A DNA stretch of 64,000 bases from an uncultured bacterium. GTDB lineage: Bacteria; Patescibacteriota; Minisyncoccia; Phycocordibacterales; Phycocordibacteraceae. Position numbers and translations under genes: made by a program. The DNA is taken from assembly GCA_947085505.1 (NCBI GenBank), contig CAMTWI010000004.1:65800-129799 (forward strand), given 5' to 3'. Below, in pieces: positions 4,634 to 51,735 of this stretch (position 1 is the first letter of the stretch; each line of letters opens with the position of its first letter). The notes below the pieces were generated by a model that was not told the DNA's origin, did not search any database, and worked only from the letters and a program-made list of their open reading frames with translations.

Positions 4634-5023
4634 ATGGAAACAACAGTATATCTCGCACAGCTGTTCGGACTCTTCCTTATCATTGTCGGTGCCTCGGTGC
4701 TATTCCGTAGGCAGGACTTCGTGCCGATTATTGGCGCATTCGTTGAAGAGCGTCTTACACGTATGCTCATGGGTCTACTCGAGCTAACCGCTGGTCTCAG
4801 TATTGTCCTTGCGCACAACGATTGGAGTTCCTTTGCAGCTGGCACCATAACGACAATTGGTTACCTACTTGTTATCGAAGGAACAATGTATCTTCTCCTG
4901 CCGAATAAGGCCATAGGCTGGGTGGTCCGGACCTTCAACGTGAAGGCGTGGTATTACACGGGTGGTTCGCTCTCGATTCTGCTCGGTGCGTACCTCTGTT
5001 TCTTTGGTTTCGGACTCTTATAG
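4634..5023 (+). CDS. hypothetical integral membrane protein (4 TM)
   Basis: Hydrophobic throughout; I recognise no motif. TATACT at 4620-4625 lies 8 nt upstream of the ATG. Confidence 0.6.
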   Translation: METTVYLAQLFGLFLIIVGASVLFRRQDFVPIIGAFVEERLTRMLMGLLELTAGLSIVLAHNDWSSFAAGTITTIGYLLVIEGTMYLLLPNKAIGWVVRTFNVKAWYYTGGSLSILLGAYLCFFGFGLL

Positions 5024-11460: not shown

Positions 11461-11511
11461 ATCCTCTTATGCAAGCTCTGTTCGGCGGCTGATGCACTAT
11501 ACTTAGGAGTA

Positions 11512-14247
11512 ATGGAGGGACCGATACTACCCATAACCTCGCCAGAGGACGAGCTCGCGTACCTTCGCGAGCAGATTGCCCGGAAGGAGGCTGAGCTTGC
11601 AACCTACAAGCGCGACATGCCTCGTGAGGATATTGCGCATGAGCGCATCTTGCATCACCGTATGAGTGGTCCAGAAACAGTGCTTGCGCCCGAGTTCCAA
11701 ATGTCTGAACGAGATGCAGTAAAGCACGCAGATATGCTTGCCTTGAATCTCGATCCTGAGCAGAACGACGAGACAATCGCAGAGCTCCGTACGGTTATGG
11801 AAGAGAAGGGTATCCATAACGCATTTACGATTCTTGCGAAACTGAACAATGCGCATCTCGAAGACGATTTCCATCGATTCTTGGTGCAATATCTGGTTGT
11901 TGGTATGCGGCCAAAGGGGCTCTCTGAGAGTCAGCCTGAGTGGAAAGCACTTCGTATGACCTTGTACGAGATTGCGCTCCCTGAAGCGAACACTGAGGAG
12001 TCGCGTGGCAAGTCTCTCAAGGAACTCATTTCCTCAATGGAGCAGTTTTACTCAGGTATGCTCGCGGTTGAGCACGCGGGACGCGGAGAGCCAGCGTACA
12101 TGACGCTTGAGCTCGCGGTTCCTGTTGATGCGCCGCATCTCATGTTCTATGCGTCAGTGCCTAATACCAGGAAAGAGCTTTTTGAGAATCAGCTTCTCGC
12201 TATCTTTCCTAATGCGCACGTGAACGCCCAACCGAACGATTACAACATTTTCGTTGAGGGTGGCGTGTCTCTCGCTTCCGTTGCCGAGTTCAAGGACAAA
12301 GCGATGCTCCCACTAAAGGATTATCAAGACTTTGATTACGATCCGATTAACTCTCTTTTGAATGCATTCGCGAAAGTGGCTCCCGAGAACGAAGGGGCAT
12401 CGTTCCAAATAGTGTTTAAACCTGAAGGGAATCATTACGTCGAGCACTATCGGCGCATCATTCATGCGCTTCGCCAGGGCGAGCACCGTTCTCGTGCGTT
12501 CAATTTGCCTGAAACGTTTGTCGGGGATCTTGCACGCGAAGCGGCAGGACTCTTCTTTTCAAGTAAGAAGCAGACACAAACCGCGCTTGTTGATGAGAAA
12601 GCCATTGAAATGGTTGAGAAGAAGATTGGTGCGCCAGTTGTTTCAACCAATGTTAGACTCACGGTTTCGTCCCAGGATCATAGGCGCGCACACCAGCTTC
12701 TTACAGAGCTTGAGTCTGCGTTCAATCAGTTTGATAACACCACGGGAAATCGTATTGAGTTTCGAAGACCAAACAAGGGTTCCTTAAAGCAGCTTCTGCG
12801 AGATTTTTCATTCCGTTTATATCGCTCTTCAACCAATCTCCCGCTCTCGCTTCGCGAACTCACCACGCTCTACCACTTCCCGCCACAGGGTATTAATTCT
12901 TCGCCACACCTAAAGCAGTCTCGATTTGCGGGAGCTGCAGCGCCCGTAGGGTTGCCGAAGGAGGGCATTATGCTCGGAACCAATAGTTTCCGAGGGTCGT
13001 CATCAGACGTGCGTATTGAAGAAAAGGACCGTCTGCGCCATTTGTACGTGATCGGCCAGACGGGAACGGGTAAGTCATCGTTTATGACAACGCTCATCGA
13101 TCAGGACATAAAGGCCGGAAATGGCGTTTGCTTTATCGATCCTCACGGCAACGACATTATTGAAATTCTTTCAAACATTCCCCCTGAGCGGTATGAAGAT
13201 GTTATTTACTTCGATCCCGCATATATTGATCGACCGTTCGGTCTTAACATGCTCGAGTACGATGCGTCACGTCCCGAGCAGAAGTCATTCATCGTCAACG
13301 AGATGCTCGCCATCTTCCAACAGCTGTATGGCGATGTACCAGAGTCCATGGGCCCAATGTTCGTGCAGTACTTCCGAAATGCCACGCAGCTGGTTATGGA
13401 GGATCCTGCGAGCGGATCAACGATTATGGATATCGGTAGAGTACTCTCGAATGCTGACTTTAGGAATCTAAAGCTTGCCCGAAGCAACAACCCAATTGTA
13501 AATCAGTTCTGGCAGGAAATTGCCACCAAAGCTGAGGGTGAGTCGAGCCTTCAGAACATTGTTCCCTACATCACAAACAAGTTTGATGAGTTCACGGGCA
13601 ACGACTTTATGCGCCCAATCATTGGGCAACAGGAGAGTTCGTTCAAGTTCCGGGAGATTATTGATAACAAGAAGATTCTTCTCGTTAATCTCTCGAAGGG
13701 ACGGCTTGGGGAACGCAACGCAAACCTTCTTGGTCTGATTATTGTTGGAAAGCTCTTCATGGCCGCGCTTTCGCGAGCAGATTCTCCTGGTACTGTCTTC
13801 CCGGCGTTCTATCTCTATATTGACGAGTTCCAGAACATAACGACATCGTCTATTCCGGGTATTCTCTCTGAAGCTCGCAAATACAAGCTTTCTCTCACCA
13901 TTGCACACCAGTATCTGGGACAGATTGAAGAAAAGATTCGAGATGCAGTGTTTGGCAACGTAGGCTCGATGGCAGTATTCCGGGTTGGACAGGAAGACGG
14001 AGAGTTCTTCGGAAAGCTGTTCGAGCCAACATTTAAGTCGAGCGATTTCACCAGTATTGAGAACTACAATGCCTATGTCCGGATACTCTCCGCAGGCGTG
14101 CCGCAAAAACCGTTTAATATAAAGACCATAGCGCCAGCGAAGGGAAACCTTGCTCAAGTAGACGATCTAAGGGAATTGTCGTACCTCACGTACGGAAGGG
14201 ACCGTGCTACTGTTGAAGCATCTATTAGAGCCAGATATCTTTCCTAA
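11512..14247 (+). CDS. VirD4/TraD-like (type IV coupling protein family) P-loop ATPase with large N-terminal domain
   Basis: Walker A VIGQTGTGKSS followed by CFIDPHGND. Walker B LYIDEFQN. TraG/TraD C-terminal style LSLTIAHQYLGQI...FGNVGSMAVFRVG. ORF track starts at 11263, overlapping purC; the ATG at 11512 follows a terminator and TATACT at 11498-11503. Confidence 0.75.
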   Translation: MEGPILPITSPEDELAYLREQIARKEAELATYKRDMPREDIAHERILHHRMSGPETVLAPEFQMSERDAVKHADMLALNLDPEQNDETIAELRTVMEEKGIHNAFTILAKLNNAHLEDDFHRFLVQYLVVGMRPKGLSESQPEWKALRMTLYEIALPEANTEESRGKSLKELISSMEQFYSGMLAVEHAGRGEPAYMTLELAVPVDAPHLMFYASVPNTRKELFENQLLAIFPNAHVNAQPNDYNIFVEGGVSLASVAEFKDKAMLPLKDYQDFDYDPINSLLNAFAKVAPENEGASFQIVFKPEGNHYVEHYRRIIHALRQGEHRSRAFNLPETFVGDLAREAAGLFFSSKKQTQTALVDEKAIEMVEKKIGAPVVSTNVRLTVSSQDHRRAHQLLTELESAFNQFDNTTGNRIEFRRPNKGSLKQLLRDFSFRLYRSSTNLPLSLRELTTLYHFPPQGINSSPHLKQSRFAGAAAPVGLPKEGIMLGTNSFRGSSSDVRIEEKDRLRHLYVIGQTGTGKSSFMTTLIDQDIKAGNGVCFIDPHGNDIIEILSNIPPERYEDVIYFDPAYIDRPFGLNMLEYDASRPEQKSFIVNEMLAIFQQLYGDVPESMGPMFVQYFRNATQLVMEDPASGSTIMDIGRVLSNADFRNLKLARSNNPIVNQFWQEIATKAEGESSLQNIVPYITNKFDEFTGNDFMRPIIGQQESSFKFREIIDNKKILLVNLSKGRLGERNANLLGLIIVGKLFMAALSRADSPGTVFPAFYLYIDEFQNITTSSIPGILSEARKYKLSLTIAHQYLGQIEEKIRDAVFGNVGSMAVFRVGQEDGEFFGKLFEPTFKSSDFTSIENYNAYVRILSAGVPQKPFNIKTIAPAKGNLAQVDDLRELSYLTYGRDRATVEASIRARYLS

Positions 14248-14256
14248 TACAAACGT

Positions 14257-16947
14257 ATGGCAAAGCAACCAGGAGAAGGACCGCCGTGGCCAAAAGGTTC
14301 AAATCAGCAGGAAGAAAAAGGAACTGGCGAGTATGCGAAGATGTTGGCACGAGCAGATAAATACTTAGATGATGCTCCAGAAGCGCAGCCAATGGAGCGA
14401 ACTGACCTTGATGGTGGTGCTTCCGTGCGCATAGCGCCAGGGGCGAAGAAGTCGAATAGACCTGGTCGAAGGGAGCGTACGCAAGGAAAAAAGGTAACGA
14501 AGAAAAAGAGAGACACAGAATCTGCTGCTCCTGAAGTAGTTGCAGAGTATGGAGTGCCTGTCGTAACAGATGGAATAACGGAAACGAGAAAGGAAAAAAA
14601 GGAGGCACTCAGAGACGCAATACTGAGAAGTAAGGAGCTAGCCGAACTGCGCCGCCAAGGCTCAGGCGAAGTTATAGCGCTTCCTGATCAGAGCGAAGAG
14701 ACCAAAGAAGATGAAATTGTAGTCCCGTTCGCTCAAGGCGCAGATCTCAATCAGCCAGAAGAAAATCTGCCCACCAAAGCCCTTAACTTCAGGGAAATAG
14801 CTAAGGGTGCAGACTCACAGATTGAACGATCTGATATGGAGTTAAAAGAACAGGCATATCTCGCTGCGTATAAGGAGCTCGAACAGAAGAGAACAATCTG
14901 GAACCGTCTTTCTAAAGGAAAGGAACTCAAAGTTGATGAGGAAAAAGTTGAAGCTCTAAAGAATGATTTCAATCAGGCTCGTATTACCTACGCAGCTGCT
15001 ATAGAAAAAGGGATTAGGGAGCCCGGAGTTCAAAATATGTCAGAGGCGTTTGTCTCACGAATGACAGAGCGATATGAGAAACTCAGAGCAAATGGGACAC
15101 CTCCTCTTGATGCCTTTGGTCGTGAACAAACACTCAGGGATTATCTTGTAAGAGAGGAAGTTGGAAGGAGAGAAAAGGTCAACAGCTACATTACATTTCG
15201 TGAGGTAGTGAGGCCTCTTGCAGAAAAGAAACTCCAGGCACGGGTTGAGGCGCTAGATGCTCGTGGGCAAGGTGCCTTTGTGAAGGGGCTTGCTTGGATT
15301 GGTGCTCAAAATCAAAAACTTGATGAGTTATTTGGAAAAAATGGAGCACGCGCAGTGCGGGCTGCAGCGAGTACTCTCGTGATTGGATTGGGTGCGGGTG
15401 CAGTGGGTAGCTTTGGAACGATGGGACTTCTTGCTGTTGCTGGTTGGGGAAGTGTTAAGTTTGCACGTGCTTTTGGTGCGGCGATGATTGCTGCTGCGGC
15501 CGGTGAAGCTGGAGCATTGGCCTACGAAAAGCTCCGGGGACGTTCTGAGCAGGAGAAGGCCAGGATAGGCGTATTGCATGAGGGAAGGGACATGCAAACA
15601 AGTTATTTTGGAGAAAGTACCATCACCAATGATTCTCTTGAACGACTAGACCAAAAGCGAGAAACGTTGGCCTCAAGAGCAGATGAATCTACTCTACAAA
15701 AGAAGAAGGCTCTCGTTAAAGCGCTTGTTGCCATGGGTGTAGGTGCAGGAGCTGCAGCCACACTTGCTGAGTACACGTCTGTCCAGCAAGCAGCTGACAA
15801 TGTTGTTGAAGCAACTTCAGGTCGGGCTCCAGAGCCAGCTGGTGTAGCTGCCGCAGGTTCTGCAGAGACTGTTTCTACCCAAGCTCCTTCTGTCGAAAAC
15901 ACTCCTAGCTCAGCTGCTGAAGCTGCCCCTGTATCAGAAGCTGCTTACATAACGCCGGTAGCACCAGAAGGTCTCGCGTTGCACGAAGCAAGCATTGGAA
16001 GAGGAGAGGGATTCAATCAGCTTGTTGTTGATTTGCGCGCCTCAGGGTTTACGGGCTTTGATTCCGAATTGTCTGCGACGGAACTTTCTGAGAAGTTTGG
16101 CGCATTTTATTCAGATACTGGAAAGAGCGGCATGATGCTTGAAGGAGATAAACTCCTAGTCGATGCGAAAGGAAATGTATGGTTTGAACGTAATGGCGAG
16201 ACACAACTTCTCATGGAGAATAAGGGCGGTGAGATTGTCTCCCATAAACTTGAAGGAATTGAAATGAGGGCTACGAATCCGACTGCTGCGCCTGTTCATG
16301 AATCAGTTGCACCAGTCACGTCGAATGAAGCTGCTTCATCAGAAGTTGCGGGAACGCCCACACCTATTGAAAACGATTCTCCTGTTCTTTCGGATACATC
16401 GAACACCCCTAGCGAGGTGTCAGAGGTACCGAATGTTGTAGGTAGACCTCTTGAGGGCTTTGGAGATCATGTCATGCAAAGCCAACCGTCTGATTTAGTG
16501 GAACGGGTTCCAGAACGTTCAGGGGGAACAATCGGAACGCCTCTTGAAAATTTTAGAGCGCAACCGCCACAGGCTATGGAAATTGAGACTCCTGAGGCAT
16601 CGCTTGTTAATTCATACGGAGTCGAGATAAATGATGCGGTTCCGTCTACGTATGAATGGAAGGTACCCGGAATGGATAGAACGCTTACTGTTTCAAGTGG
16701 CGGATCTCCTGAAGAGCGTTCCGCATTTGCTCGAGCCTATGCGAATGAACACCCTGGAACTACCGTGCACTTCATAACGCCAGTATTGAATAATGGAGTA
16801 GTGCAGCTTCGCCTCGATGCATGGGATTCAGCTGAAGGAGGGCCTGCTCAAAGACTAGAGGATATTGCTGTTCGAGAATCAACTGGTGCTCCAGTGCAAT
16901 CGTTCTCAAGAATTGATCCGCGTGACTTTATTAAGAAGCTTCCATAA
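14257..16947 (+). CDS. 896-aa orphan transmembrane protein (N-terminal coiled coil, central Gly/Ala TM bundle, Ser/Pro/Glu-rich C-terminal region)
   Basis: Starts 10 nt after the ATPase stop. TM segments are AAASTLVIGLGAGAVGSFGTMGLLAVAGWG, FGAAMIAAAAGEAGALAY and ALVAMGVGAGAAATLA. I recognise no family. Confidence 0.6.
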   Translation: MAKQPGEGPPWPKGSNQQEEKGTGEYAKMLARADKYLDDAPEAQPMERTDLDGGASVRIAPGAKKSNRPGRRERTQGKKVTKKKRDTESAAPEVVAEYGVPVVTDGITETRKEKKEALRDAILRSKELAELRRQGSGEVIALPDQSEETKEDEIVVPFAQGADLNQPEENLPTKALNFREIAKGADSQIERSDMELKEQAYLAAYKELEQKRTIWNRLSKGKELKVDEEKVEALKNDFNQARITYAAAIEKGIREPGVQNMSEAFVSRMTERYEKLRANGTPPLDAFGREQTLRDYLVREEVGRREKVNSYITFREVVRPLAEKKLQARVEALDARGQGAFVKGLAWIGAQNQKLDELFGKNGARAVRAAASTLVIGLGAGAVGSFGTMGLLAVAGWGSVKFARAFGAAMIAAAAGEAGALAYEKLRGRSEQEKARIGVLHEGRDMQTSYFGESTITNDSLERLDQKRETLASRADESTLQKKKALVKALVAMGVGAGAAATLAEYTSVQQAADNVVEATSGRAPEPAGVAAAGSAETVSTQAPSVENTPSSAAEAAPVSEAAYITPVAPEGLALHEASIGRGEGFNQLVVDLRASGFTGFDSELSATELSEKFGAFYSDTGKSGMMLEGDKLLVDAKGNVWFERNGETQLLMENKGGEIVSHKLEGIEMRATNPTAAPVHESVAPVTSNEAASSEVAGTPTPIENDSPVLSDTSNTPSEVSEVPNVVGRPLEGFGDHVMQSQPSDLVERVPERSGGTIGTPLENFRAQPPQAMEIETPEASLVNSYGVEINDAVPSTYEWKVPGMDRTLTVSSGGSPEERSAFARAYANEHPGTTVHFITPVLNNGVVQLRLDAWDSAEGGPAQRLEDIAVRESTGAPVQSFSRIDPRDFIKKLP

Positions 16948-43571: not shown

Positions 43572-46439
43572 ATGGCGAAAGAACGGTTCGATCATATAGC
43601 GATTGAGAAGTCCGCCCAAGAGAAATGGGAGGCGCTCGATATCTACACAACCGACCTCACCGATTCAGAAAAGGAACCGTATTACCTTTTGTTCGAGTTC
43701 CCATATCCTTCAGGAGATCTCCATATTGGCCATTGGTTCGCGTTTGCCCTTACGGATATATTTGCGCGCTTCAAGCGTATGCAAGGGAAGAATGTATTGT
43801 TCCCGATGGGATTCGATTCCTTTGGACTTCCTGCTGAGAACGCGGCTATTAAGAACGGTGCGGACCCAGCAGTGTGGACCAACGAGAACATGGAGCGCAT
43901 GCGCGCGCAGGTGAAGACCATGGGAACCTCTGTTGATTGGTCTAAGGAAGTCGTTACCTCAAGCCCCGAGTACTACAAGTGGACGCAGTGGCTCTTCTCA
44001 AAGCTGTATGACCACGGACTTGCGTACCGCAAGGAAGCGGCAGTGAAGTGGTGTCCGAAGGATCAAACGGTGCTCGCCAACGAACAGGTAATTGATGGCA
44101 AGTGCGAGCGTTGTGACTCTGAAGTAGAGGAGAAATTCCTTACGCAGTGGTTCATGGGCATTACGAAGTATGCGGAGCGTCTTCTTACTGATCTTGATCC
44201 GCTTCCATGGCGCGAAGAGATGAAGGATGCGCAGCGTGCATGGATAGGAAAGTCAGAAGGAGCAAAACTCTCCTTCCCTATTCTCTTTGCTGACGAAGCG
44301 AAGAATGAATGGAGGGACGAGGAAGAAAACCCTGCTCAAGTAGCGGTATTTACGACGCGTCCTGACACGGTCTTTGGTGCAACGTATGTCGTGCTCGCGC
44401 CCGAACACCCGTGGGTAGTAGGAGCACTTGAACATGGCACTGATGTATTTTCAAACGAGAAGGAGATTCGTGCGTATATACAGGAGACCTCAAAGAAGAC
44501 TGAGCGGGAGCGTCTTGAGAACAAGGAGAAGACCGGTGTGAAGCTTGATGGCATTCGTGCTGTTAACCCAGCAACGAAGGAAGAGATTCCGGTATTTATT
44601 GCAGATTACGTACTTGCGTCCTACGGAACGGGTGCGGTTATGGCGGTCCCCGCTCATGACGAGCGAGATTATGCGTTTGCAAAGAAGTTTGATCTTCCAA
44701 TCAAACCAGTTATTGATCCTGTGACGGGAACGCCGCAGGACAATCCGGAGGATAAGGATAAGATTGTTGCGATTGTGGAGTACGAGGGGCAAGTCCTAAC
44801 GATCAACTGGAAACCTGAACTTGGCGGGAGACTCACGGTTGGAGGAACGTCGGAGATAGACGAGGACGCTGCAACAACAGCGATGCGTGAGGTTGCGGAG
44901 GAGACTGGCTATACCGACCTTGAGCTCGTTGAGCGTGCGGAGGAGATGGTGCACCACGAGTACTTTGCGCACTCGAAGGGAAGGCCGTTTGTTGCACATA
45001 CGACACTCCTTCACTTCCGTTTAAAGAGCGATGCGCAGCAGGAACCACTTCTCGAAGAAGACGAGAAAGGGAAATTCAATGTCGAGTGGTTACCTATTAC
45101 TACAGCGATCCAGGAAATTAAGGATCCGCTCCATAGCTATGCGCTTTCAAGATTCCTTACTCCTTCGGCGTATGTAGGAGACGGTCTACTGCGCAATTCA
45201 GGGCAGTTCGATGGCAGAGACAACCGTGAAGCAATGGGCGAGATTATTGATTTCGTTGGCGGCGAGCGCGTTACAAACTATCGCCTCCGCGACTGGCTCG
45301 TTTCTCGCCAGCGCTACTGGGGCTGCCCAATACCAGTTGTATATGACCCACAGGGTGCGCCACACTTGATTCCTTACGAGCATCTTCCGTGGACACTGCC
45401 CACGGACGTTGATTTCTCGCCATCTGCAGAGTCTCCACTCGCCACTTCTAAGGAACTCAAAGAACGTGTTGAACGAATCTTTGGCGAGGGATGGACTCCT
45501 GAGTACGATACCCTCGATACCTTTGTTGATTCTTCGTGGTACTTCCTTCGGTATCTCGATTCGAAGGATGAGAATGATTTCTCAGATCAGTCACTCATGA
45601 AGAAGTGGCTCCCGGTTAATCGCTACTCGGGAGGCAGCGAGCACACAACGATGCATCTTCTGTATTCACGCTTCTTCCATAAGGCGCTCTACGATCTTGC
45701 GCTCGTACCAACCCCAGAACCATTCGAAGAGCGCTTCAACCGTGGACTTATTCTTGGCACTGACGGACAGAAAATGTCGAAGCGCTGGGGAAATGTTGTT
45801 AATCCGGATGAGGTACTGGCAAAACTTGGTTCAGACGCGGTGCGTATGTACCTCGCCTTCATTGGTCCGTATAACGAACCGGGAAGTTATCCGTGGAAAC
45901 TTGATGGGGCGGTTGCGATGCGAAAGTTCCTTGATCGGGTGTGCCAGCTCTCTGAAAAGGTTACGGAGGGAGAAATGTCTGAGAGCGAACGGACGTCACT
46001 CGCAAAGGCCGTGAAGAAGGTAACGGGAGACACGGAGCGTTTTAAGTTCAATACCGCGATCTCAGGACACATGGTGTTCGTACGAGAGCTTGAGAGTGCT
46101 AAATCTATATCGAAAGAGATATACCTCGCACTCGTATCACTTATGGCTCCGTTTGCCCCGCACCTCGCCGAGCATCTCTGGGAGAAAATGGGCGCCGAGG
46201 GCAGTGTGCATACGACCTCATGGCCGCAAGAGATCGCCATAGAGGAAGACGCTATTGTTATAGGTGTGCAGGTAAATGGCAAAAGGAGGGCCGAGATTGC
46301 CCTAGCTCCTGACGCTTCTGAGGAGGAGGCTATGGAGGCCGCAAGGGCTAATGAGACCATTAGCCGCCTACTTCATGAAGGAAGCCTAGAAAAAATAGTC
46401 TATGTTCCAGGCCGTATTCTGAACATGGTGATAACATGA
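43572..46439 (+). CDS. leuS: leucyl-tRNA synthetase carrying an inserted Nudix domain
   Basis: PYPSGDLHIGH, CP1 editing TTRPDTVFGATY and GTGAVMAVPAHDERDY, NYRLRDWLVSRQRYWG, KMSKRWGN. A Nudix box is at nt 44844-44912. Confidence 0.95.
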   Translation: MAKERFDHIAIEKSAQEKWEALDIYTTDLTDSEKEPYYLLFEFPYPSGDLHIGHWFAFALTDIFARFKRMQGKNVLFPMGFDSFGLPAENAAIKNGADPAVWTNENMERMRAQVKTMGTSVDWSKEVVTSSPEYYKWTQWLFSKLYDHGLAYRKEAAVKWCPKDQTVLANEQVIDGKCERCDSEVEEKFLTQWFMGITKYAERLLTDLDPLPWREEMKDAQRAWIGKSEGAKLSFPILFADEAKNEWRDEEENPAQVAVFTTRPDTVFGATYVVLAPEHPWVVGALEHGTDVFSNEKEIRAYIQETSKKTERERLENKEKTGVKLDGIRAVNPATKEEIPVFIADYVLASYGTGAVMAVPAHDERDYAFAKKFDLPIKPVIDPVTGTPQDNPEDKDKIVAIVEYEGQVLTINWKPELGGRLTVGGTSEIDEDAATTAMREVAEETGYTDLELVERAEEMVHHEYFAHSKGRPFVAHTTLLHFRLKSDAQQEPLLEEDEKGKFNVEWLPITTAIQEIKDPLHSYALSRFLTPSAYVGDGLLRNSGQFDGRDNREAMGEIIDFVGGERVTNYRLRDWLVSRQRYWGCPIPVVYDPQGAPHLIPYEHLPWTLPTDVDFSPSAESPLATSKELKERVERIFGEGWTPEYDTLDTFVDSSWYFLRYLDSKDENDFSDQSLMKKWLPVNRYSGGSEHTTMHLLYSRFFHKALYDLALVPTPEPFEERFNRGLILGTDGQKMSKRWGNVVNPDEVLAKLGSDAVRMYLAFIGPYNEPGSYPWKLDGAVAMRKFLDRVCQLSEKVTEGEMSESERTSLAKAVKKVTGDTERFKFNTAISGHMVFVRELESAKSISKEIYLALVSLMAPFAPHLAEHLWEKMGAEGSVHTTSWPQEIAIEEDAIVIGVQVNGKRRAEIALAPDASEEEAMEAARANETISRLLHEGSLEKIVYVPGRILNMVIT

Positions 46440-46487: not shown

Positions 46488-47579
46488 ATGAAAAAATCAC
46501 TAAAGAAGGCGGCTTCGGCCCCAAAGAAGTCTGCCGCAGCTAAGAAGAAGGCCACAACTTCTATTTCGTTTGATACAACCACGCTTGTGAAGCGTCTTCT
46601 TGCTGAGGTGCCGGAGCGCGCTCGTGAGGTGCTCATTTTCCGTTTTGGTCTCGGTGCTAAATCAAGTCGCGACACGCTTGAGGCTATTGGAGAGCGCTGG
46701 AGCATTACGCGTGAGCGCGTACGTCAGATTGAGGCTGCCGGTATTGAGTCCATTCGTAACAGCAAGGCTTTTAAGGACTCCCAGGACGCTTTTGACGAGC
46801 TATCTCAGTACATGGCTGCACTTGGCGGCATCATCCCCGAGGAGGAACTTCTTGAAGGTCTCGCAACGGACGAGAAGTCTCGCAACCGATATCGTTTTCT
46901 TCTCGTTGTTGGAAGCTCATTCTTCCGCGAGCGTGAGACCGACGATTTCTACGCGCGATGGCATGTTGATCATAAGACTGCTGAAGCAGTGCACAGTGCA
47001 CTTTCTCGCCTCTACGAGACACTCGACGACGCTGAGGTGCTCGCTGAAGGCGACATCATCAACCGCTTCCTTGAGGAACTGAAAGAGGTAAACAGTGCCT
47101 ATCGCAACGAAGAGATTCTTAAGCGTTGGCTCACCATTTCAAAGACCATCGCAAAGAACCCTCTTTCTGAATGGGGTAAGGCGCATGCGCCGGCAATTCG
47201 CACCAAGGGTATCCGCGATTACGCGTACCTCGTGATTAAGCAGAAGGGCGAACCAATGCACTTTGGCGATGTTGCCAAGTCTATCGTTGACGTGTTCAAC
47301 AAGAAGGCACATGTTGCAACAACGCATAACGAACTGATTAAGGACTCGCGCTTTGTGCTTGTTGGCCGCGGCCTTTACGCGCTCGCAGAATGGGGCTTCT
47401 CCCCAGGTGTTGTGCGTGACGTCATCAAGGAAGCGCTCGTTAAGGGTCCTCTTAATCGTGACGAGATCATCAAGGAGGTAAAGAAGGTTCGCTACGTTAA
47501 GGACAACACGATTCTCGTGAACCTTGGCGACACGCGCTACTTTAAACGCCACAAGGACGGCACCTACACTGCGGTGTAA
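46488..47579 (+). CDS. DNA-binding protein with sigma-70 region-4-like HTH and HARE-HTH-like C-terminal domain
   Basis: REVLIFRFGLG...TLEAIGERWSITRERVRQIEAAGIESIR is region-4-like. The C-terminal IRDYAYLVIKQKGEPMHFGDVAKSI...DSRFVLVGRGLYALAEWG is HARE-HTH-like (from memory). Confidence 0.6.
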   Translation: MKKSLKKAASAPKKSAAAKKKATTSISFDTTTLVKRLLAEVPERAREVLIFRFGLGAKSSRDTLEAIGERWSITRERVRQIEAAGIESIRNSKAFKDSQDAFDELSQYMAALGGIIPEEELLEGLATDEKSRNRYRFLLVVGSSFFRERETDDFYARWHVDHKTAEAVHSALSRLYETLDDAEVLAEGDIINRFLEELKEVNSAYRNEEILKRWLTISKTIAKNPLSEWGKAHAPAIRTKGIRDYAYLVIKQKGEPMHFGDVAKSIVDVFNKKAHVATTHNELIKDSRFVLVGRGLYALAEWGFSPGVVRDVIKEALVKGPLNRDEIIKEVKKVRYVKDNTILVNLGDTRYFKRHKDGTYTAV

Positions 47580-47595
47580 CACTATTCCGTACACA

Positions 47596-47628
47596 CAAGA
47601 AGGCCTCGCTCATCGCGAGGCCTTCTTG
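47596..47628 (+). terminator. intrinsic terminator
   Basis: CAAGAAGGCCTCGC-TCATC-GCGAGGCCTTCTTG forms a 14-bp stem, followed by TTTTGTTG. Confidence 0.85.
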
Positions 47629-47649
47629 TTTTGTTGCTATACTTCGAGC

Positions 47650-49026
47650 ATGTCATCAGGCGGACACGGTGGAGGACTCCCATTCCTCGATGTTATTGAG
47701 CATTGGGTACATGGCGTACATGAAGAAGGTGGCACAGCGATTCAGCTTAAGCCGCTCTTAATTGCGTTTGCTGCTGAGATTGTCGCCTTCTTCTTCATTG
47801 CGCCCGCACAGTCCGTTACGAACTTTCAGTTCCTATTGTTTGCGGCACCCCTCTGGATACCATTAGTGCTGTACCCGTTTACCTTGAAGCGGTATATCGA
47901 CGCGAACAAGTTGGCGTTTATTGCAAAGCAGGACCACGTGTTGCTTGAGATTAAGATGCCACGCGATACACGACGTACACCGCTCGCGATGGAGACAATA
48001 TTCTCTAGTATGCATATCGGCGGAGGCGAGACGACGTGGTACAAGCGGATCATCGAAGGTCGTTCACGCCCCTGGTACTCGTACGAGATGGCCTCGATTG
48101 GCGGCCGTGTGCACTACTTTGTTTGGATGCGTTCAGGATGGCGCCGTCCATTCGAGAGTTATATATACGCCCAGTATCCCGGTGTTGAAGTTATTGAGGC
48201 CATGGACTACTCAAGGCTTATCGATCCGTCGCATGATCCGTACACCATGACGGCATTCGAGTTCTATAAGACCAAGCCAGATCCGTACCCCATAAAGACG
48301 TATGTTGAGTATGGTCTCGACAAAATACAGAAGCCGGAAGAGCAAGTTGATCCGATGGCGCAGGTTATTGAGGTTATGGGATCCCTTGGACCCAAGGAGC
48401 AGTTGTGGGTGCAATTTGTCGTACGTATCCATAAAGGAGAGAAATACGGCGAAGATCAGAAGCGAACCTGGAAGGATGAAGCCAAGGACGTACTCAAAGA
48501 ACTCAAGGAAGAAGATGCTGTTACGAACGAGTATGTTGATGCGAATGGCGTTAAGAAGACCAGTGTTAGTTATCCAAACCCGACACGTGCTATGGCGAGC
48601 CGTATTGAAGCGGTTGAGAAGAATACCGGGAAGCAAGCGTATGACGTTGGTATTCGCGGTATCTACTGCGCACCAAAGGATTCCGCATACGGCACCATGG
48701 GTGGCATACTCGTGAATCTCTTCAAGCCGTACAACTCTGAGCAGTTCAATTCACTCATGCCTTCAAATGGACGGTGGTCCAACCATTTCAATGATTATCC
48801 ATGGGAGGACAAGCATGGACACCATCTTGCACACGCTAACCACAGTGTTCTTGAGTTCTATCGTATGCGCGCGTTCTTCCATCCTCCGTACGTGGGTGCA
48901 TATAACGTTATGAGCGTCGAGGAACTCGCGACTATGTATCACGTTCCTTCAAGCTCGGTTACAACGCCATCCCTACCTCGTATCCAGTCCACAACGAGCG
49001 AGGCGCCAAGCAATCTCCCTACATAG
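47650..49026 (+). CDS. membrane-anchored paralog of the N-terminal region of the 11512-14247 ATPase
   Basis: N-terminal TM helices. LLEIKMPRDT...YSYEMASIGGRVHYFVWMRSGWRRPFESYIYAQYPGVEVI and the C-terminal MSVEELATMYHVP...APSNLP parallel LYEIALPEAN...MTLELAVPVDAPHLMFYASVPNTRKELFENQLLAIFPNAHV and LSLRELTTLYHFP...APVGLP in the ATPase. The ATG at 47650 follows TATACT at 47638-43. Confidence 0.6.
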   Translation: MSSGGHGGGLPFLDVIEHWVHGVHEEGGTAIQLKPLLIAFAAEIVAFFFIAPAQSVTNFQFLLFAAPLWIPLVLYPFTLKRYIDANKLAFIAKQDHVLLEIKMPRDTRRTPLAMETIFSSMHIGGGETTWYKRIIEGRSRPWYSYEMASIGGRVHYFVWMRSGWRRPFESYIYAQYPGVEVIEAMDYSRLIDPSHDPYTMTAFEFYKTKPDPYPIKTYVEYGLDKIQKPEEQVDPMAQVIEVMGSLGPKEQLWVQFVVRIHKGEKYGEDQKRTWKDEAKDVLKELKEEDAVTNEYVDANGVKKTSVSYPNPTRAMASRIEAVEKNTGKQAYDVGIRGIYCAPKDSAYGTMGGILVNLFKPYNSEQFNSLMPSNGRWSNHFNDYPWEDKHGHHLAHANHSVLEFYRMRAFFHPPYVGAYNVMSVEELATMYHVPSSSVTTPSLPRIQSTTSEAPSNLPT

Positions 49027-50117: not shown

Positions 50118-50951
50118 ATGAAGCCCGAAATCACTAAGGCAGACGGAACTGTAGAGGTATTCAATGGCATAAAGCTCGAGGGGTCTCTTGTTCGTGCAGG
50201 AGCGACACAAGCAACGGCAGAACGCATTCGGCACACAATTGAGACTTCGATGGGTCCGATGGCACAAAGCAACGACATATACCGCCGTTCATTCCAGATG
50301 CTCCGCCAAGAAGCTCGTCCCGTTGCTGCACGGTATAGTCTGCGACGTGCACTGTTTGAGTTCGGTCCTTCGGGGCACCCCTTTGAGGATTTCGTAGCGG
50401 AACTGTTTAAGAAGGAAGGCTGGACAGTAGAGGGACGCCGAATGATTCCAGGTAAGTGTGTACCCCACGAAGTAGATGTGTACGCAAGGCGAGGGGACGA
50501 GCATCTTGCAGCTGAACTTAAGTATCACAATAGTCCCGGATACAAAACTGACGTAAAAGTAGCGCTCTACGTGAAGGCTCGTTTTGATGACATTTGGCAG
50601 TGCAAGGAAGAAGGTAAGAAAGTCTGCCCTGTTGATCTTGGCTTTCTTATTACAAACACCAAGTTCACGCGTCAGGCGATTGATTTCGCGAACTGTTCCG
50701 GTATGGGTCTTCTTGGATGGAGCTATCCGCACGAAGGGAATCTGTACGATCGTATTATCGCAAGCAGTTTATTCCCGGTTACCGCTCTCACGACTCTTAA
50801 GAAAGCTGAGAAGCGTCTTCTTATCGACATGGGCATCGTTACGTGTGACCAGGTTCGAGAGAATAGAGACGTTCTTCGCAGTGTTGGTCTAACACCGGAG
50901 CGCATTGGGACGGTTGTTGCGGAAGTTAATACGCTCTGCGCAAAGCAATAG
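50118..50951 (+). CDS. ATP-cone domain protein fused to a restriction-endonuclease-like (PD-(D/E)xK) domain
   Basis: N-terminal ATP-cone pattern (I.KADGTVEVFN..KL..SL.RAG). Then FEDFVAELFKKEGW, with VDVYA...AELKYH as a candidate D...ExK nuclease core. Confidence 0.6.
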   Translation: MKPEITKADGTVEVFNGIKLEGSLVRAGATQATAERIRHTIETSMGPMAQSNDIYRRSFQMLRQEARPVAARYSLRRALFEFGPSGHPFEDFVAELFKKEGWTVEGRRMIPGKCVPHEVDVYARRGDEHLAAELKYHNSPGYKTDVKVALYVKARFDDIWQCKEEGKKVCPVDLGFLITNTKFTRQAIDFANCSGMGLLGWSYPHEGNLYDRIIASSLFPVTALTTLKKAEKRLLIDMGIVTCDQVRENRDVLRSVGLTPERIGTVVAEVNTLCAKQ

Positions 50952-50952
50952 T

Positions 50953-51735
50953 ATGTCTGACTTCAAGCGATACAATCCAAACCGTGGTGCAGACTGGAAC
51001 TATGGCGGCAAGAAGTGGCGTTTGTCGCGTTCAAAGATTGAATTCTTTGTAGAGTGCCCGCGGTGCTTTTATGTAGACAACAAGCTCGGCACGAAGCGTC
51101 CTGGATACCCTGAGTTCACGCTTAACAAAGCCGTGGATGCACTCTTTAAGAAGGAGTTTGATGTACACCGGAAGGCTGCAACAGCGCATCCACTCATGGA
51201 AAAGTACGGCATCGATGCGGTTCCCTTCGTGCACGCAAAGATGGATACCTGGCGCGAGAACTTTGAGGGTGTGGAATATACGCATACTCCAACCGGATTT
51301 GTTATCTCAGGCGCGGTAGATGATATATGGGTAAATAAGGCAGGAGAATTGATTGTTGTTGATTACAAGGCAACTTCAAAGCCTGGCACTATAGAGACGC
51401 TCGGGGATTCAAGCTGGAATGAGCAGTACAAGCGGCAGATGGGTGTGTATCAGTGGCTTCTCCGGCATAACGGATTCGAGGTGTCCTCAATGGGGTACTT
51501 GGTCTATGCAAATGCGCATGACGACAAGGAAGCATTTGATGCCAAGCTTGAGTTTGAGGTAACCGTTGTCGAGTGCGAAGGGCAGTCTGAGTGGATAGAC
51601 GAGATTCTTCCGCGTATTAAGGAGACACTTGAGAGTGATGCCATACCTCCAGTAGGAGAAGCATGTGAGTTCTGCCCATACCGCGAAGCTGCTGGGAAGA
51701 AGTTGCTTGCGATGCACAAGGCCGGGAAGAAGTAG
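50953..51735 (+). CDS. PD-(D/E)XK nuclease, Cas4/RecB-like with Cys cluster
   Basis: N-terminal CPRCFY, the core GAVDDIWV...LIVVDYKATSK, YKRQMGVYQWLL and the C-terminal CEFCPY. This is the Cas4-like four-Cys arrangement. Confidence 0.7.
   Translation: MSDFKRYNPNRGADWNYGGKKWRLSRSKIEFFVECPRCFYVDNKLGTKRPGYPEFTLNKAVDALFKKEFDVHRKAATAHPLMEKYGIDAVPFVHAKMDTWRENFEGVEYTHTPTGFVISGAVDDIWVNKAGELIVVDYKATSKPGTIETLGDSSWNEQYKRQMGVYQWLLRHNGFEVSSMGYLVYANAHDDKEAFDAKLEFEVTVVECEGQSEWIDEILPRIKETLESDAIPPVGEACEFCPYREAAGKKLLAMHKAGKK

Follow-up and report, generated by a model that had tools for sequence, protein, structure and literature searches.

The 64,000-nt window analyzed here (positions 65,800 to 129,799 of contig CAMTWI010000004.1, assembly GCA_947085505.1, from an uncultured bacterium of the Patescibacteriota) is chromosomal DNA from a Paceibacteria/Parcubacteria member of the candidate phyla radiation and contains two genes, 36 kb apart, whose products both belong to the Pfam family DUF8128 (PF26449). 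One, which we call famA, encodes a membrane protein that has no ATPase domain, and the other, famB, encodes a soluble protein in which the DUF8128 domain is followed by a VirD4/TraD-like ATPase (Table 1). There are exactly two copies of DUF8128 in the window, and Pfam states no function for the family. A first-pass annotation had proposed that the famA product is a membrane-anchored, ATPase-less paralog of the N-terminal region of the famB product, and that the two form a split coupling complex with anchor and motor on separate proteins.

Table 1. Coordinates of the two DUF8128 genes, their parts and their immediate surroundings in the window.
Feature	Position	Strand	Basis or remark
famB, soluble DUF8128 + VirD4/TraD-like ATPase, 911 aa	11512..14247	+	Pfam DUF87, TraG-D_C
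famB DUF8128 domain, aa 148-483	11953..12960	+	homologous to famA aa 95-458
famB Walker A, GQTGTGKS, aa 515-522	13054..13077	+	G515, Q516, G518, G520 and K521 invariant in 30 homologs
896-aa protein, two hydrophobic segments	14257..16947	+	no family match; starts 9 nt past the end of the ATPase gene
Sigma-70 region 4 + HARE-HTH protein	46488..47579	+	Pfam; constant upstream neighbor of famA
Terminator-like hairpin ending the upstream gene, 15 bp, T-rich tail	47595..47629	+	-32 kcal/mol, z -6
Extended -10-like box, TGCTATACT	47635..47643	+	sequence, conservation; ends 6 nt 5' of the famA ATG
famA, ATPase-less DUF8128 membrane protein, 458 aa	47650..49026	+	open reading frame, homologs, AlphaFold2 model
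famA predicted membrane hairpin, formed by hydrophobic helices near aa 35-51 and 59-77	47752..47880	+	hydropathy, AlphaFold2
famA DUF8128 domain core, aa 95-437, alpha/beta fold	47932..48960	+	hhalign against the ATPase N-domain, secondary-structure order, PDB fold matches
famA C-terminal signature, MSVEELATMYHVPSS..TTPSLPRIQSTTSEAPSNLPT	48910..49023	+	invariant columns, BLASTP, pLDDT

An alignment of 30 homologs supports the start codon assigned to famA, as the N-terminus MSSGGHGGGGLP is conserved among them. Kyte-Doolittle windows exceed 1.6 only at about aa 29-56 and 56-79, and AlphaFold2, run on the 30-sequence alignment, places helices at residues 33-50 and 52-93 (52-64 plus 66-93). Hydropathy and structure prediction therefore bear out the reading that the protein begins with transmembrane (TM) helices, and in this respect famA has the anchor of two N-terminal TM helices that is typical of type IV coupling proteins (T4CPs). 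An N-terminal hydrophobic segment is present in 116 of the 120 famA homologs listed. The P-loop of a T4CP was not found in famA, which has no Walker A motif and gave no match to any P-loop family in scans with Pfam and NCBIfam. The alpha/beta domain that follows the helices is well predicted (predicted local distance difference test score, pLDDT, of 79 and predicted template modeling score of 0.74 for the model). Because a K/R-rich stretch follows the second helix, we infer from the positive-inside rule that this domain is cytoplasmic. Residues 1-32 (47650-47745) form a cytoplasmic, Gly/His-rich N-terminal peptide, MSSGGHGGGGLPxLxxIE, that is conserved throughout the two-TM clade, with S2, L10 and P11 nearly invariant.

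At its other end, famA carries a signature in which E425, A427, H431, P433, P440, R444, Q446, S447, P453, L456 and P457 are invariant among the 30 homologs. Although the final ~20 residues hardly vary, they are predicted to be disordered, with pLDDT below 50 at 438-458. This tail is the counterpart of the linker that joins the domain to the motor in the ATPase family, and famA terminates there; the equivalent segment of famB, in chain with its ATPase domain, has pLDDT of 62-81. An invariant tail modeled with pLDDT below 50 would be typical of a motif that folds upon binding. The Walker A motif of famB begins about 30 residues past APVGLP. famA does halt just before the point where a P-loop domain would begin, as had been noted, and the positions given earlier for the two signatures (48910-49020 and 12844-12960) are right.

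To establish whether the two proteins are homologous, we compared them first as single sequences and then as profiles. The BLASTP alignment was confined to the C-terminal signature (17/54 identical, E 7e-4). Profile-profile comparison with hhalign, using a 30-sequence alignment of each family, aligned aa 95-458 of famA with aa 148-483 of famB over 313 columns (Prob 98.5%, E 1.7e-15) at ~18% identity. With the domains trimmed, the score was 130 (E 9e-18), far better than the scores of at most 24 (E 0.025 or worse) in 23 controls, one reversed and 22 column-shuffled. The match does not depend on the signature, since it persists at E 1.2e-12 when the C-terminal motif is removed. The segments paired by hhalign are the same ones that had been quoted as matching: LLEIKMPRD with LYEIALPE, YSYEMASIGGRVHYFVW with MTLELAVP..HLMFYASV, and YAQYPGVEVI with LAIFPNAHV. 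Secondary-structure elements follow the same order in the AlphaFold models of famA and famB. In addition, precomputed Pfam matches to PF26449 exist on both families, including one at E <=1e-5 on a protein identical to famA that is encoded on a public contig. These data confirm that the DUF8128 domain of famA is homologous to the N-domain of famB, and the similarity survives the comparison with shuffled controls that the first-pass annotation had put forward as a refuting test. The homologous part covers ~336 aa of famB (148-483), and the earlier figure of ~560 aa for the N-terminal region was too large.

Other searches with famA returned no match in Pfam (a copy without PF26449), NCBIfam, PADLOC or PHROGs, and the famA profile drew nothing above noise from the PDB sequences. 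We rejected a defense-system or phage origin for famA, which has no PADLOC, phage or IMG/VR relative. A defense origin was likewise rejected for famB, whose matches of this kind are limited to generic HerA/mad8 P-loops and whose context is housekeeping.

famB looks like a coupling-type motor that has no anchor of its own. Its hydropathy maximum (1.57) lies inside the ATPase domain, with no segment comparable to the famA helices, and no N-terminal TM segment was found in famB or in the N-terminal parts of its 120 listed relatives. Residues 1-147 are a helical extension without a counterpart in famA. The ATPase domain matches DUF87/HerA, TraG-D_C (E 2e-4), NCBIfam TraD and the VirD4-like CD1115 (E 4e-7), all below curated cut-offs; homologs of famB also match TrwB_AAD_bind and T4SS-DNA_transf, and the sole PDB sequence match of famB is TrwB. 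In the AlphaFold2 model (pLDDT 76.8), Walker A and Walker B are separated by an inserted helical region at 590-704. The neighbors of famB in the window are housekeeping genes, and no relaxase or type IV secretion system (T4SS) gene lies nearby.

The famB family does occur in a T4SS-like setting elsewhere. gp156 of Bacillus phage G is a full-length famB homolog that includes DUF8128 (hhalign E 1.5e-35, 674 columns). It adjoins the VirB4-like gp155 (P-loop_TraG, AAA_10) and is near the TrbL/VirB6-like gp153 (JN638751.1 87772-93336); among these VirB4-like and VirB6/TrbL-like genes, it stands where a T4CP would be. The jumbo phage thus carries a T4SS-like trio of gp153, gp155 and gp156. Further matches to the ATPase family, which corresponds to phrog_5156, are gp27.4 of phage SPO1 and proteins of SPO1-like phages.

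Next, we asked how widely the domain is distributed and in what architectures. We found 1658 homologs of famA, about 460 aa in length and all with PF26449, at 47-100% identity and with 63 invariant columns. When a merged domain profile was searched against 1.84 billion cluster representatives, 3998 proteins matched at E <=1e-3, 2522 at 1e-10 and 1104 at 1e-30. Among the best 150 of these matches we distinguished four classes. Class I proteins (about 900-1040 aa), which include the ATPase of the window, have a soluble extension, no TM helix and an ATPase domain. Class II proteins (about 800-840 aa; P0298, P0335 and P0365) have one TM helix and an ATPase domain. The remaining classes have no ATPase domain: class III (about 450-465 aa), to which famA belongs, has two TM helices, and class IV (about 400-445 aa), the most numerous, has one. 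Classes III and IV both end at ...P.L.RI.S...AP.NLP, with few further residues at most, and 82 of the 145 library representatives listed are short (<480 aa) and end at [NGESQ][LI]P, mostly NLP.

Scores against clade-specific hidden Markov models (HMMs) separated these proteins into two deep clades, one ATPase-less (III and IV) and one ATPase-linked (I and II). Because the two DUF8128 clades are so deeply diverged, at ~18% identity and in separate HMM score classes, famA is an ancient, catalytically empty paralog that stems from an old duplication, not from a recent split. Throughout Paceibacteria it is retained among the core genes of the chromosome. The source names of the listed family members are all Parcubacteria or Paceibacterota. 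Many third-party-annotation metagenome-assembled genomes labeled 'uncultured Candidatus Saccharibacteria bacterium' carry a famA-type gene in Paceibacteria-type synteny (L012-L015, L019, L021 and others); either these labels are pipeline artifacts or the family extends past Paceibacteria.

Single chains that combine TM helix, DUF8128 and ATPase therefore exist in the same phylum. One of them, in GCA_046766295.1 (L165, 10001-12415), and others of about 800-840 aa (P0335, P0365) lie within a run of unannotated genes. On the 5' side of the GCA_046766295.1 gene are a POTRA_1 (FtsQ-like) gene and genes for products of 597 and 162 aa, and on the 3' side are genes for products of 222, 155, 251, 188 and 529 aa. 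This gene run may encode an undescribed membrane machine.

To place the shared fold among known systems, we searched both models against the PDB with Foldseek. The full famB model matched VirB4 first (E 5.5e-10, about 900 colinear columns); HerA, DotL, TrwB and Cag-beta ranked after VirB4 and aligned to the ATPase half only. For the famA model, chains of R388 TrwK/VirB4 again came first (E 4e-3 to 9e-3, prob 0.87-0.91), with a weak TM-score of about 0.3. The models thus suggest that famB has a VirB4-like two-domain layout combined with a VirD4-like motor, and that DUF8128 may resemble the N-domain of VirB4. The latter resemblance is tentative, because it has no sequence-level support and because the domain seems to consist in part of common beta-alpha-beta-beta-alpha-beta units. 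It also speaks against a simple division of one coupling protein into two, since the shared fold looks more like the VirB4 N-domain than like anything in classical VirD4.

Like the T4CPs VirD4/TraD/TrwB, famB appears to have a VirD4-like P-loop domain (TraG-D_C) and finds TrwB as its only PDB sequence match. Classical T4CPs, however, have an N-terminal two-helix anchor and no DUF8128, whereas famB is free of TM helices and has a helical extension of 147 aa together with DUF8128, and famA has the anchor without the ATPase. VirB4 (TrwK) shares with famB the order of N-domain then ATPase and is the best structural match of both models, but by sequence the famB ATPase domain is nearer to VirD4 than to VirB4, and neither famA nor famB adjoins virB4. 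The N-terminus of famA, one helix followed by two TM helices, is like VirB3 (TrwM) of R388, and famA joins such a part to DUF8128. VirB3 is nevertheless small (10-15 kDa) and encoded beside virB4, whereas famA has 458 aa and its one-TM orthologs have no hairpin.

Two further proteins are informative as precedents. TrsD of pGO1 matches famA in concept, as a protein paralogous to the N-terminal portion of a T4SS ATPase but without the motor, and its type is widespread in Patescibacteria (PMC12102498), but it has 227 aa and homologs that are mostly beside virB4, whereas famA has 458 aa and a TM hairpin and lies beside LeuRS. We rejected the identity of famA with TrsD, because hhalign of the famA profile against pGO1 TrsD detected no similarity; the same comparison with the VirB4-like gp155 of phage G was also negative. 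TraI of pIP501 is a separately encoded two-TM protein that has been proposed as the membrane anchor, or holder, of the coupling ATPase TraJ (PMC13037476, PMC12857230), a role like the one considered here for famA. TraI differs in being small, in lying in the tra cluster and in having no domain reported in common with TraJ, while famA is large, has a 340-aa domain in common with famB and is encoded 36 kb away from it.

We next examined whether famA and famB occur together. Both genes are present in 3/3 checkable genomes, one of which is that of the window. In GCA_022842945.1 they are on one contig, about 38 kb apart, and in GCA_031291965.1 they are on two contigs. To look for local linkage, we examined the famA gene with 10-kb flanks in 80 species-representative genomes, together with 80 metagenomic loci of the ATPase gene. 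We rejected an operon or neighborhood link, as none was seen in these 160 loci. The flanks of famA contain LeuRS, MnmA and Ung; no adjacent virB4 was found by tblastn with the famB ATPase domain, a search that a divergent virB4 could escape.

Our best hypothesis, plausible but unproven and with somewhat less than an even chance of being correct, is that famA has a heteromeric, membrane-docking role for a DUF8128-ATPase. famA would sit in the membrane as a partner, itself non-catalytic, of ATPases of the DUF8128 type. Pairing would take place between the DUF8128 domains of famA and famB, in the manner of the VirB4(central) and VirB4(outside) N-domains in R388, and the invariant, predicted unstructured tail of famA, a putative remnant of the linker, would dock on the partner. 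As a result, an otherwise soluble 'orphan' coupling-type ATPase would be held at the membrane or regulated there, with DNA or protein as its cargo.

Several lines of evidence favor membrane docking. The homology of the two domains is far above controls, and one Pfam model covers both. famA has a TM hairpin, whereas famB and its 120 listed relatives have none, and the famA tail is invariant despite its low pLDDT. TrwK/VirB4 is the best fold match of both proteins, and in R388 only N-domains contribute to the interface of the VirB4(central)-VirB4(outside) dimer, while VirB3, with two TM helices among its three, wraps the VirB4 N-domain and anchors VirB4 (PMC9259494). The pIP501 TraI precedent and the co-occurrence in 3/3 genomes are consistent with a separate anchor. 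The single chains with TM helix, DUF8128 and ATPase indicate that the domain plus motor works at the membrane, and in phage G the famB family holds the position of a T4CP. The idea of a split coupling complex thus stands in so far as a membrane-anchored, ATPase-less paralog and a TM-less ATPase co-occur and have precedents. It does not stand as a plain split of one coupling protein, since both proteins keep DUF8128, famA belongs to a deep separate clade, the genes are never neighbors and self-anchored relatives exist. Because such self-anchored relatives exist, famA need not be a replacement anchor.

Other observations weigh against docking. No ATPase relative was found within 10 kb of famA at any of the 80 loci (tblastn with the famB ATPase domain, which divergent virB4 could escape), and no ATPase-less gene was found within 10 kb of the ATPase gene at any of the 80 metagenomic loci. 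The co-occurrence of famA and famB rests on three genomes, and a deep divergence, with about 18% identity and separate HMM score classes, lies between the two DUF8128 clades. The most constant neighbor of famA is not an ATPase but a DNA-binding sigma-r4/HARE-HTH gene, and famB has its own operonic neighbor with hydrophobic segments. Finally, the fold similarity between famA and VirB4 is weak (TM-score about 0.3), and no sequence-level link to VirB4 or TrsD was found.

These observations led us to weigh other explanations. famA could work without famB, as a non-catalytic scaffold or pseudo-subunit of another machine; this could be the VirB4-based T4SS of Patescibacteria, in which famA would be TrsD-like or resemble VirB3 plus an N-domain, or a self-anchored paralog encoded elsewhere in the genome. 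We consider this somewhat doubtful but the most serious of the alternatives. Patescibacteria have many proteins of the TrsD type, homologous to the VirB4 N-terminus but without an ATPase, and that of S. epibionticum is among the genes listed as essential (PMC12102498). VirB4 as the first fold match of famA, the VirB3-like topology of the famA N-terminus, the self-anchored DUF8128-ATPases of the same phylum and the lack of any chromosomal linkage between famA and famB all point the same way. However, famA shows no sequence similarity to pGO1 TrsD or to the phage G VirB4-like protein, the tblastn search for ATPase-like genes within 10 kb of it was negative at all 80 loci, and the sole clear homolog of its domain is the N-domain of a VirD4-like ATPase family.

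It is decidedly unlikely that famA acts instead with the upstream sigma-r4/HARE-HTH protein, for example as a membrane tether or sensor, with the ATPase homology being only historical. This would fit the position of the sigma-r4/HARE gene, which is directly 5' of famA and co-directional at 79/79 informative loci while the downstream neighbors vary, and which also precedes a distant one-TM famA ortholog (L168). Between the two genes, however, are a conserved hairpin and a separate -10 box, which argue for separate transcripts. The whole block from LeuRS to Ung is syntenic housekeeping DNA, so the adjacency may be frozen gene order, and no known sigma or anti-sigma feature was found in famA by Pfam and NCBIfam scans. 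That the similarity of famA and famB arose by chance or composition, or that famA is a decayed, truncated ATPase gene, is refuted. A single-sequence BLASTP match of only 54 residues at E 7e-4 might have suggested as much, but profile E-values of 1e-15 to 1e-17, compared with 0.025 or worse in shuffled controls, indicate otherwise, as do the 1658 full-length homologs, the 63 invariant columns and a confident predicted fold. We also rejected a truncated pseudogene because the next gene, that for MnmA, begins 26 nt past the famA stop and leaves no room for a decayed ATPase domain.

A broader and quite improbable extension is that DUF8128 represents the ancestral N-domain of the VirB4 and VirD4 lineages. 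Under this scenario, Paceibacteria would have a chromosomally fixed two-gene motor of famA-type and famB-type proteins, forming a mixed ring or a hexamer of heterodimers, that was exapted from conjugation for housekeeping transport in an epibiotic lifestyle (for example, uptake or export of DNA or protein at host contact). If true, such an ancestral two-gene motor would explain thousands of 'orphan' T4CP genes of Patescibacteria. A 2025 survey counted 5,713 VirD4-type homologs of unknown function in 2,918 Patescibacteria genomes; only 148 of the homologs are near virB4, and nearly all lie far from T4SS loci (PMC12102498).

Membrane docking, as the preferred hypothesis, would be the first clue to what this large family, for which no function has been published, may do; a literature search found no paper mentioning DUF8128 or PF26449. 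What is seen here is of a known kind, in that T4SS ATPases are known to have accessory or anchor subunits as well as paralogs without a motor, and both families fall within an already delineated Pfam family. The two deep DUF8128 clades, the fixed synteny and the VirB4-like fold appear not to have been described. At least in Paceibacteria, orphan T4CPs have a DUF8128 N-domain where classical coupling proteins have a membrane anchor, and a very large conserved family of motorless, membrane-anchored DUF8128 proteins accompanies the orphan ATPases as a core gene. Together, famA, famB and the single-chain versions offer a concrete model for how orphan motors may reach the membrane, and a possible evolutionary link between the VirB4 and VirD4 architectures.

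The gene that follows famB encodes an 896-aa protein with hydrophobic segments at aa 374-394 and 485-504, and this product is a possible alternative membrane partner of famB. It is partly low-complexity in appearance, and its family is fast-evolving, with tblastn finding it at 3/80 loci. Members of this 600-1200-aa family lie 3' of the ATPase gene in the window and at 11 of the 48 loci with a complete downstream open reading frame; at 13 loci a ~200-aa family is found there instead. Because the downstream gene varies between these two families by lineage, we rejected the idea that the ATPase has one and the same operonic membrane partner everywhere.

The surroundings of famA are more uniform. 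The gene lies in a conserved co-directional block that consists of p42585, LeuRS, the sigma-r4/HARE-HTH gene, the DUF8128 gene, a variable gene in some cases, MnmA, an Mrr-like gene, a PD-(D/E)XK gene and Ung. Other housekeeping genes of the window encode UvrABC, TGT, ATP synthase and AlaRS. Pfam matches to Sigma70_r4 and HARE-HTH bear out the domains first read in the upstream neighbor, whose Lys-rich tail is accompanied by weak similarity to RNA polymerase delta and to MzaA.

A terminator-like hairpin is also present where the first-pass annotation placed a strong terminator between this neighbor and famA. Among related loci, at least 45 of 76 have a hairpin with a T tract in the same spacer, and 75 of 77 have a TAnnnT box 4-9 nt ahead of the famA ATG, 53 of these with TGn. 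Because both the hairpin and the -10-like box are conserved in related genomes, famA appears to be its own transcription unit, probably with its own promoter and a leaderless mRNA. We refined, without rejecting it, the view that the terminator marks unrelated genes: a conserved -10 box comes after the conserved hairpin, which would give famA a promoter of its own despite the constant adjacency. In the window as a whole, 12 of the 18 TATA[CA]T boxes on the + strand, often preceded by TGn, are 5-9 nt ahead of an ATG that opens a reading frame of at least 60 aa, compared with 0/11 on the - strand. This leaderless-type layout is found at 47635-47652 and 11498-11514 and at the ATGs at 4634, 6133, 9363, 10118, 23267, 28121, 41456, 42105, 42585 and 57000. 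The pattern suggests that leaderless transcription units are common in this organism.

The LeuRS of the block (43572-46439, 955 aa) has a NUDIX hydrolase domain inserted at aa 403-515 (about 44778-45116; Pfam E 7.7e-10), which is also listed for the identical LeuRS gene of a public contig; the LeuRS of a distant relative (L168) has 803 aa, with no NUDIX match listed. On the other side of famA, the Mrr_cat-like gene (50118-50951) and the gene for a PD-(D/E)XK/Cas4-like nuclease (50905-51735) overlap by about 47 nt, and they are present in the conserved block 3' of famA at 70/80 and 68/80 loci, respectively.

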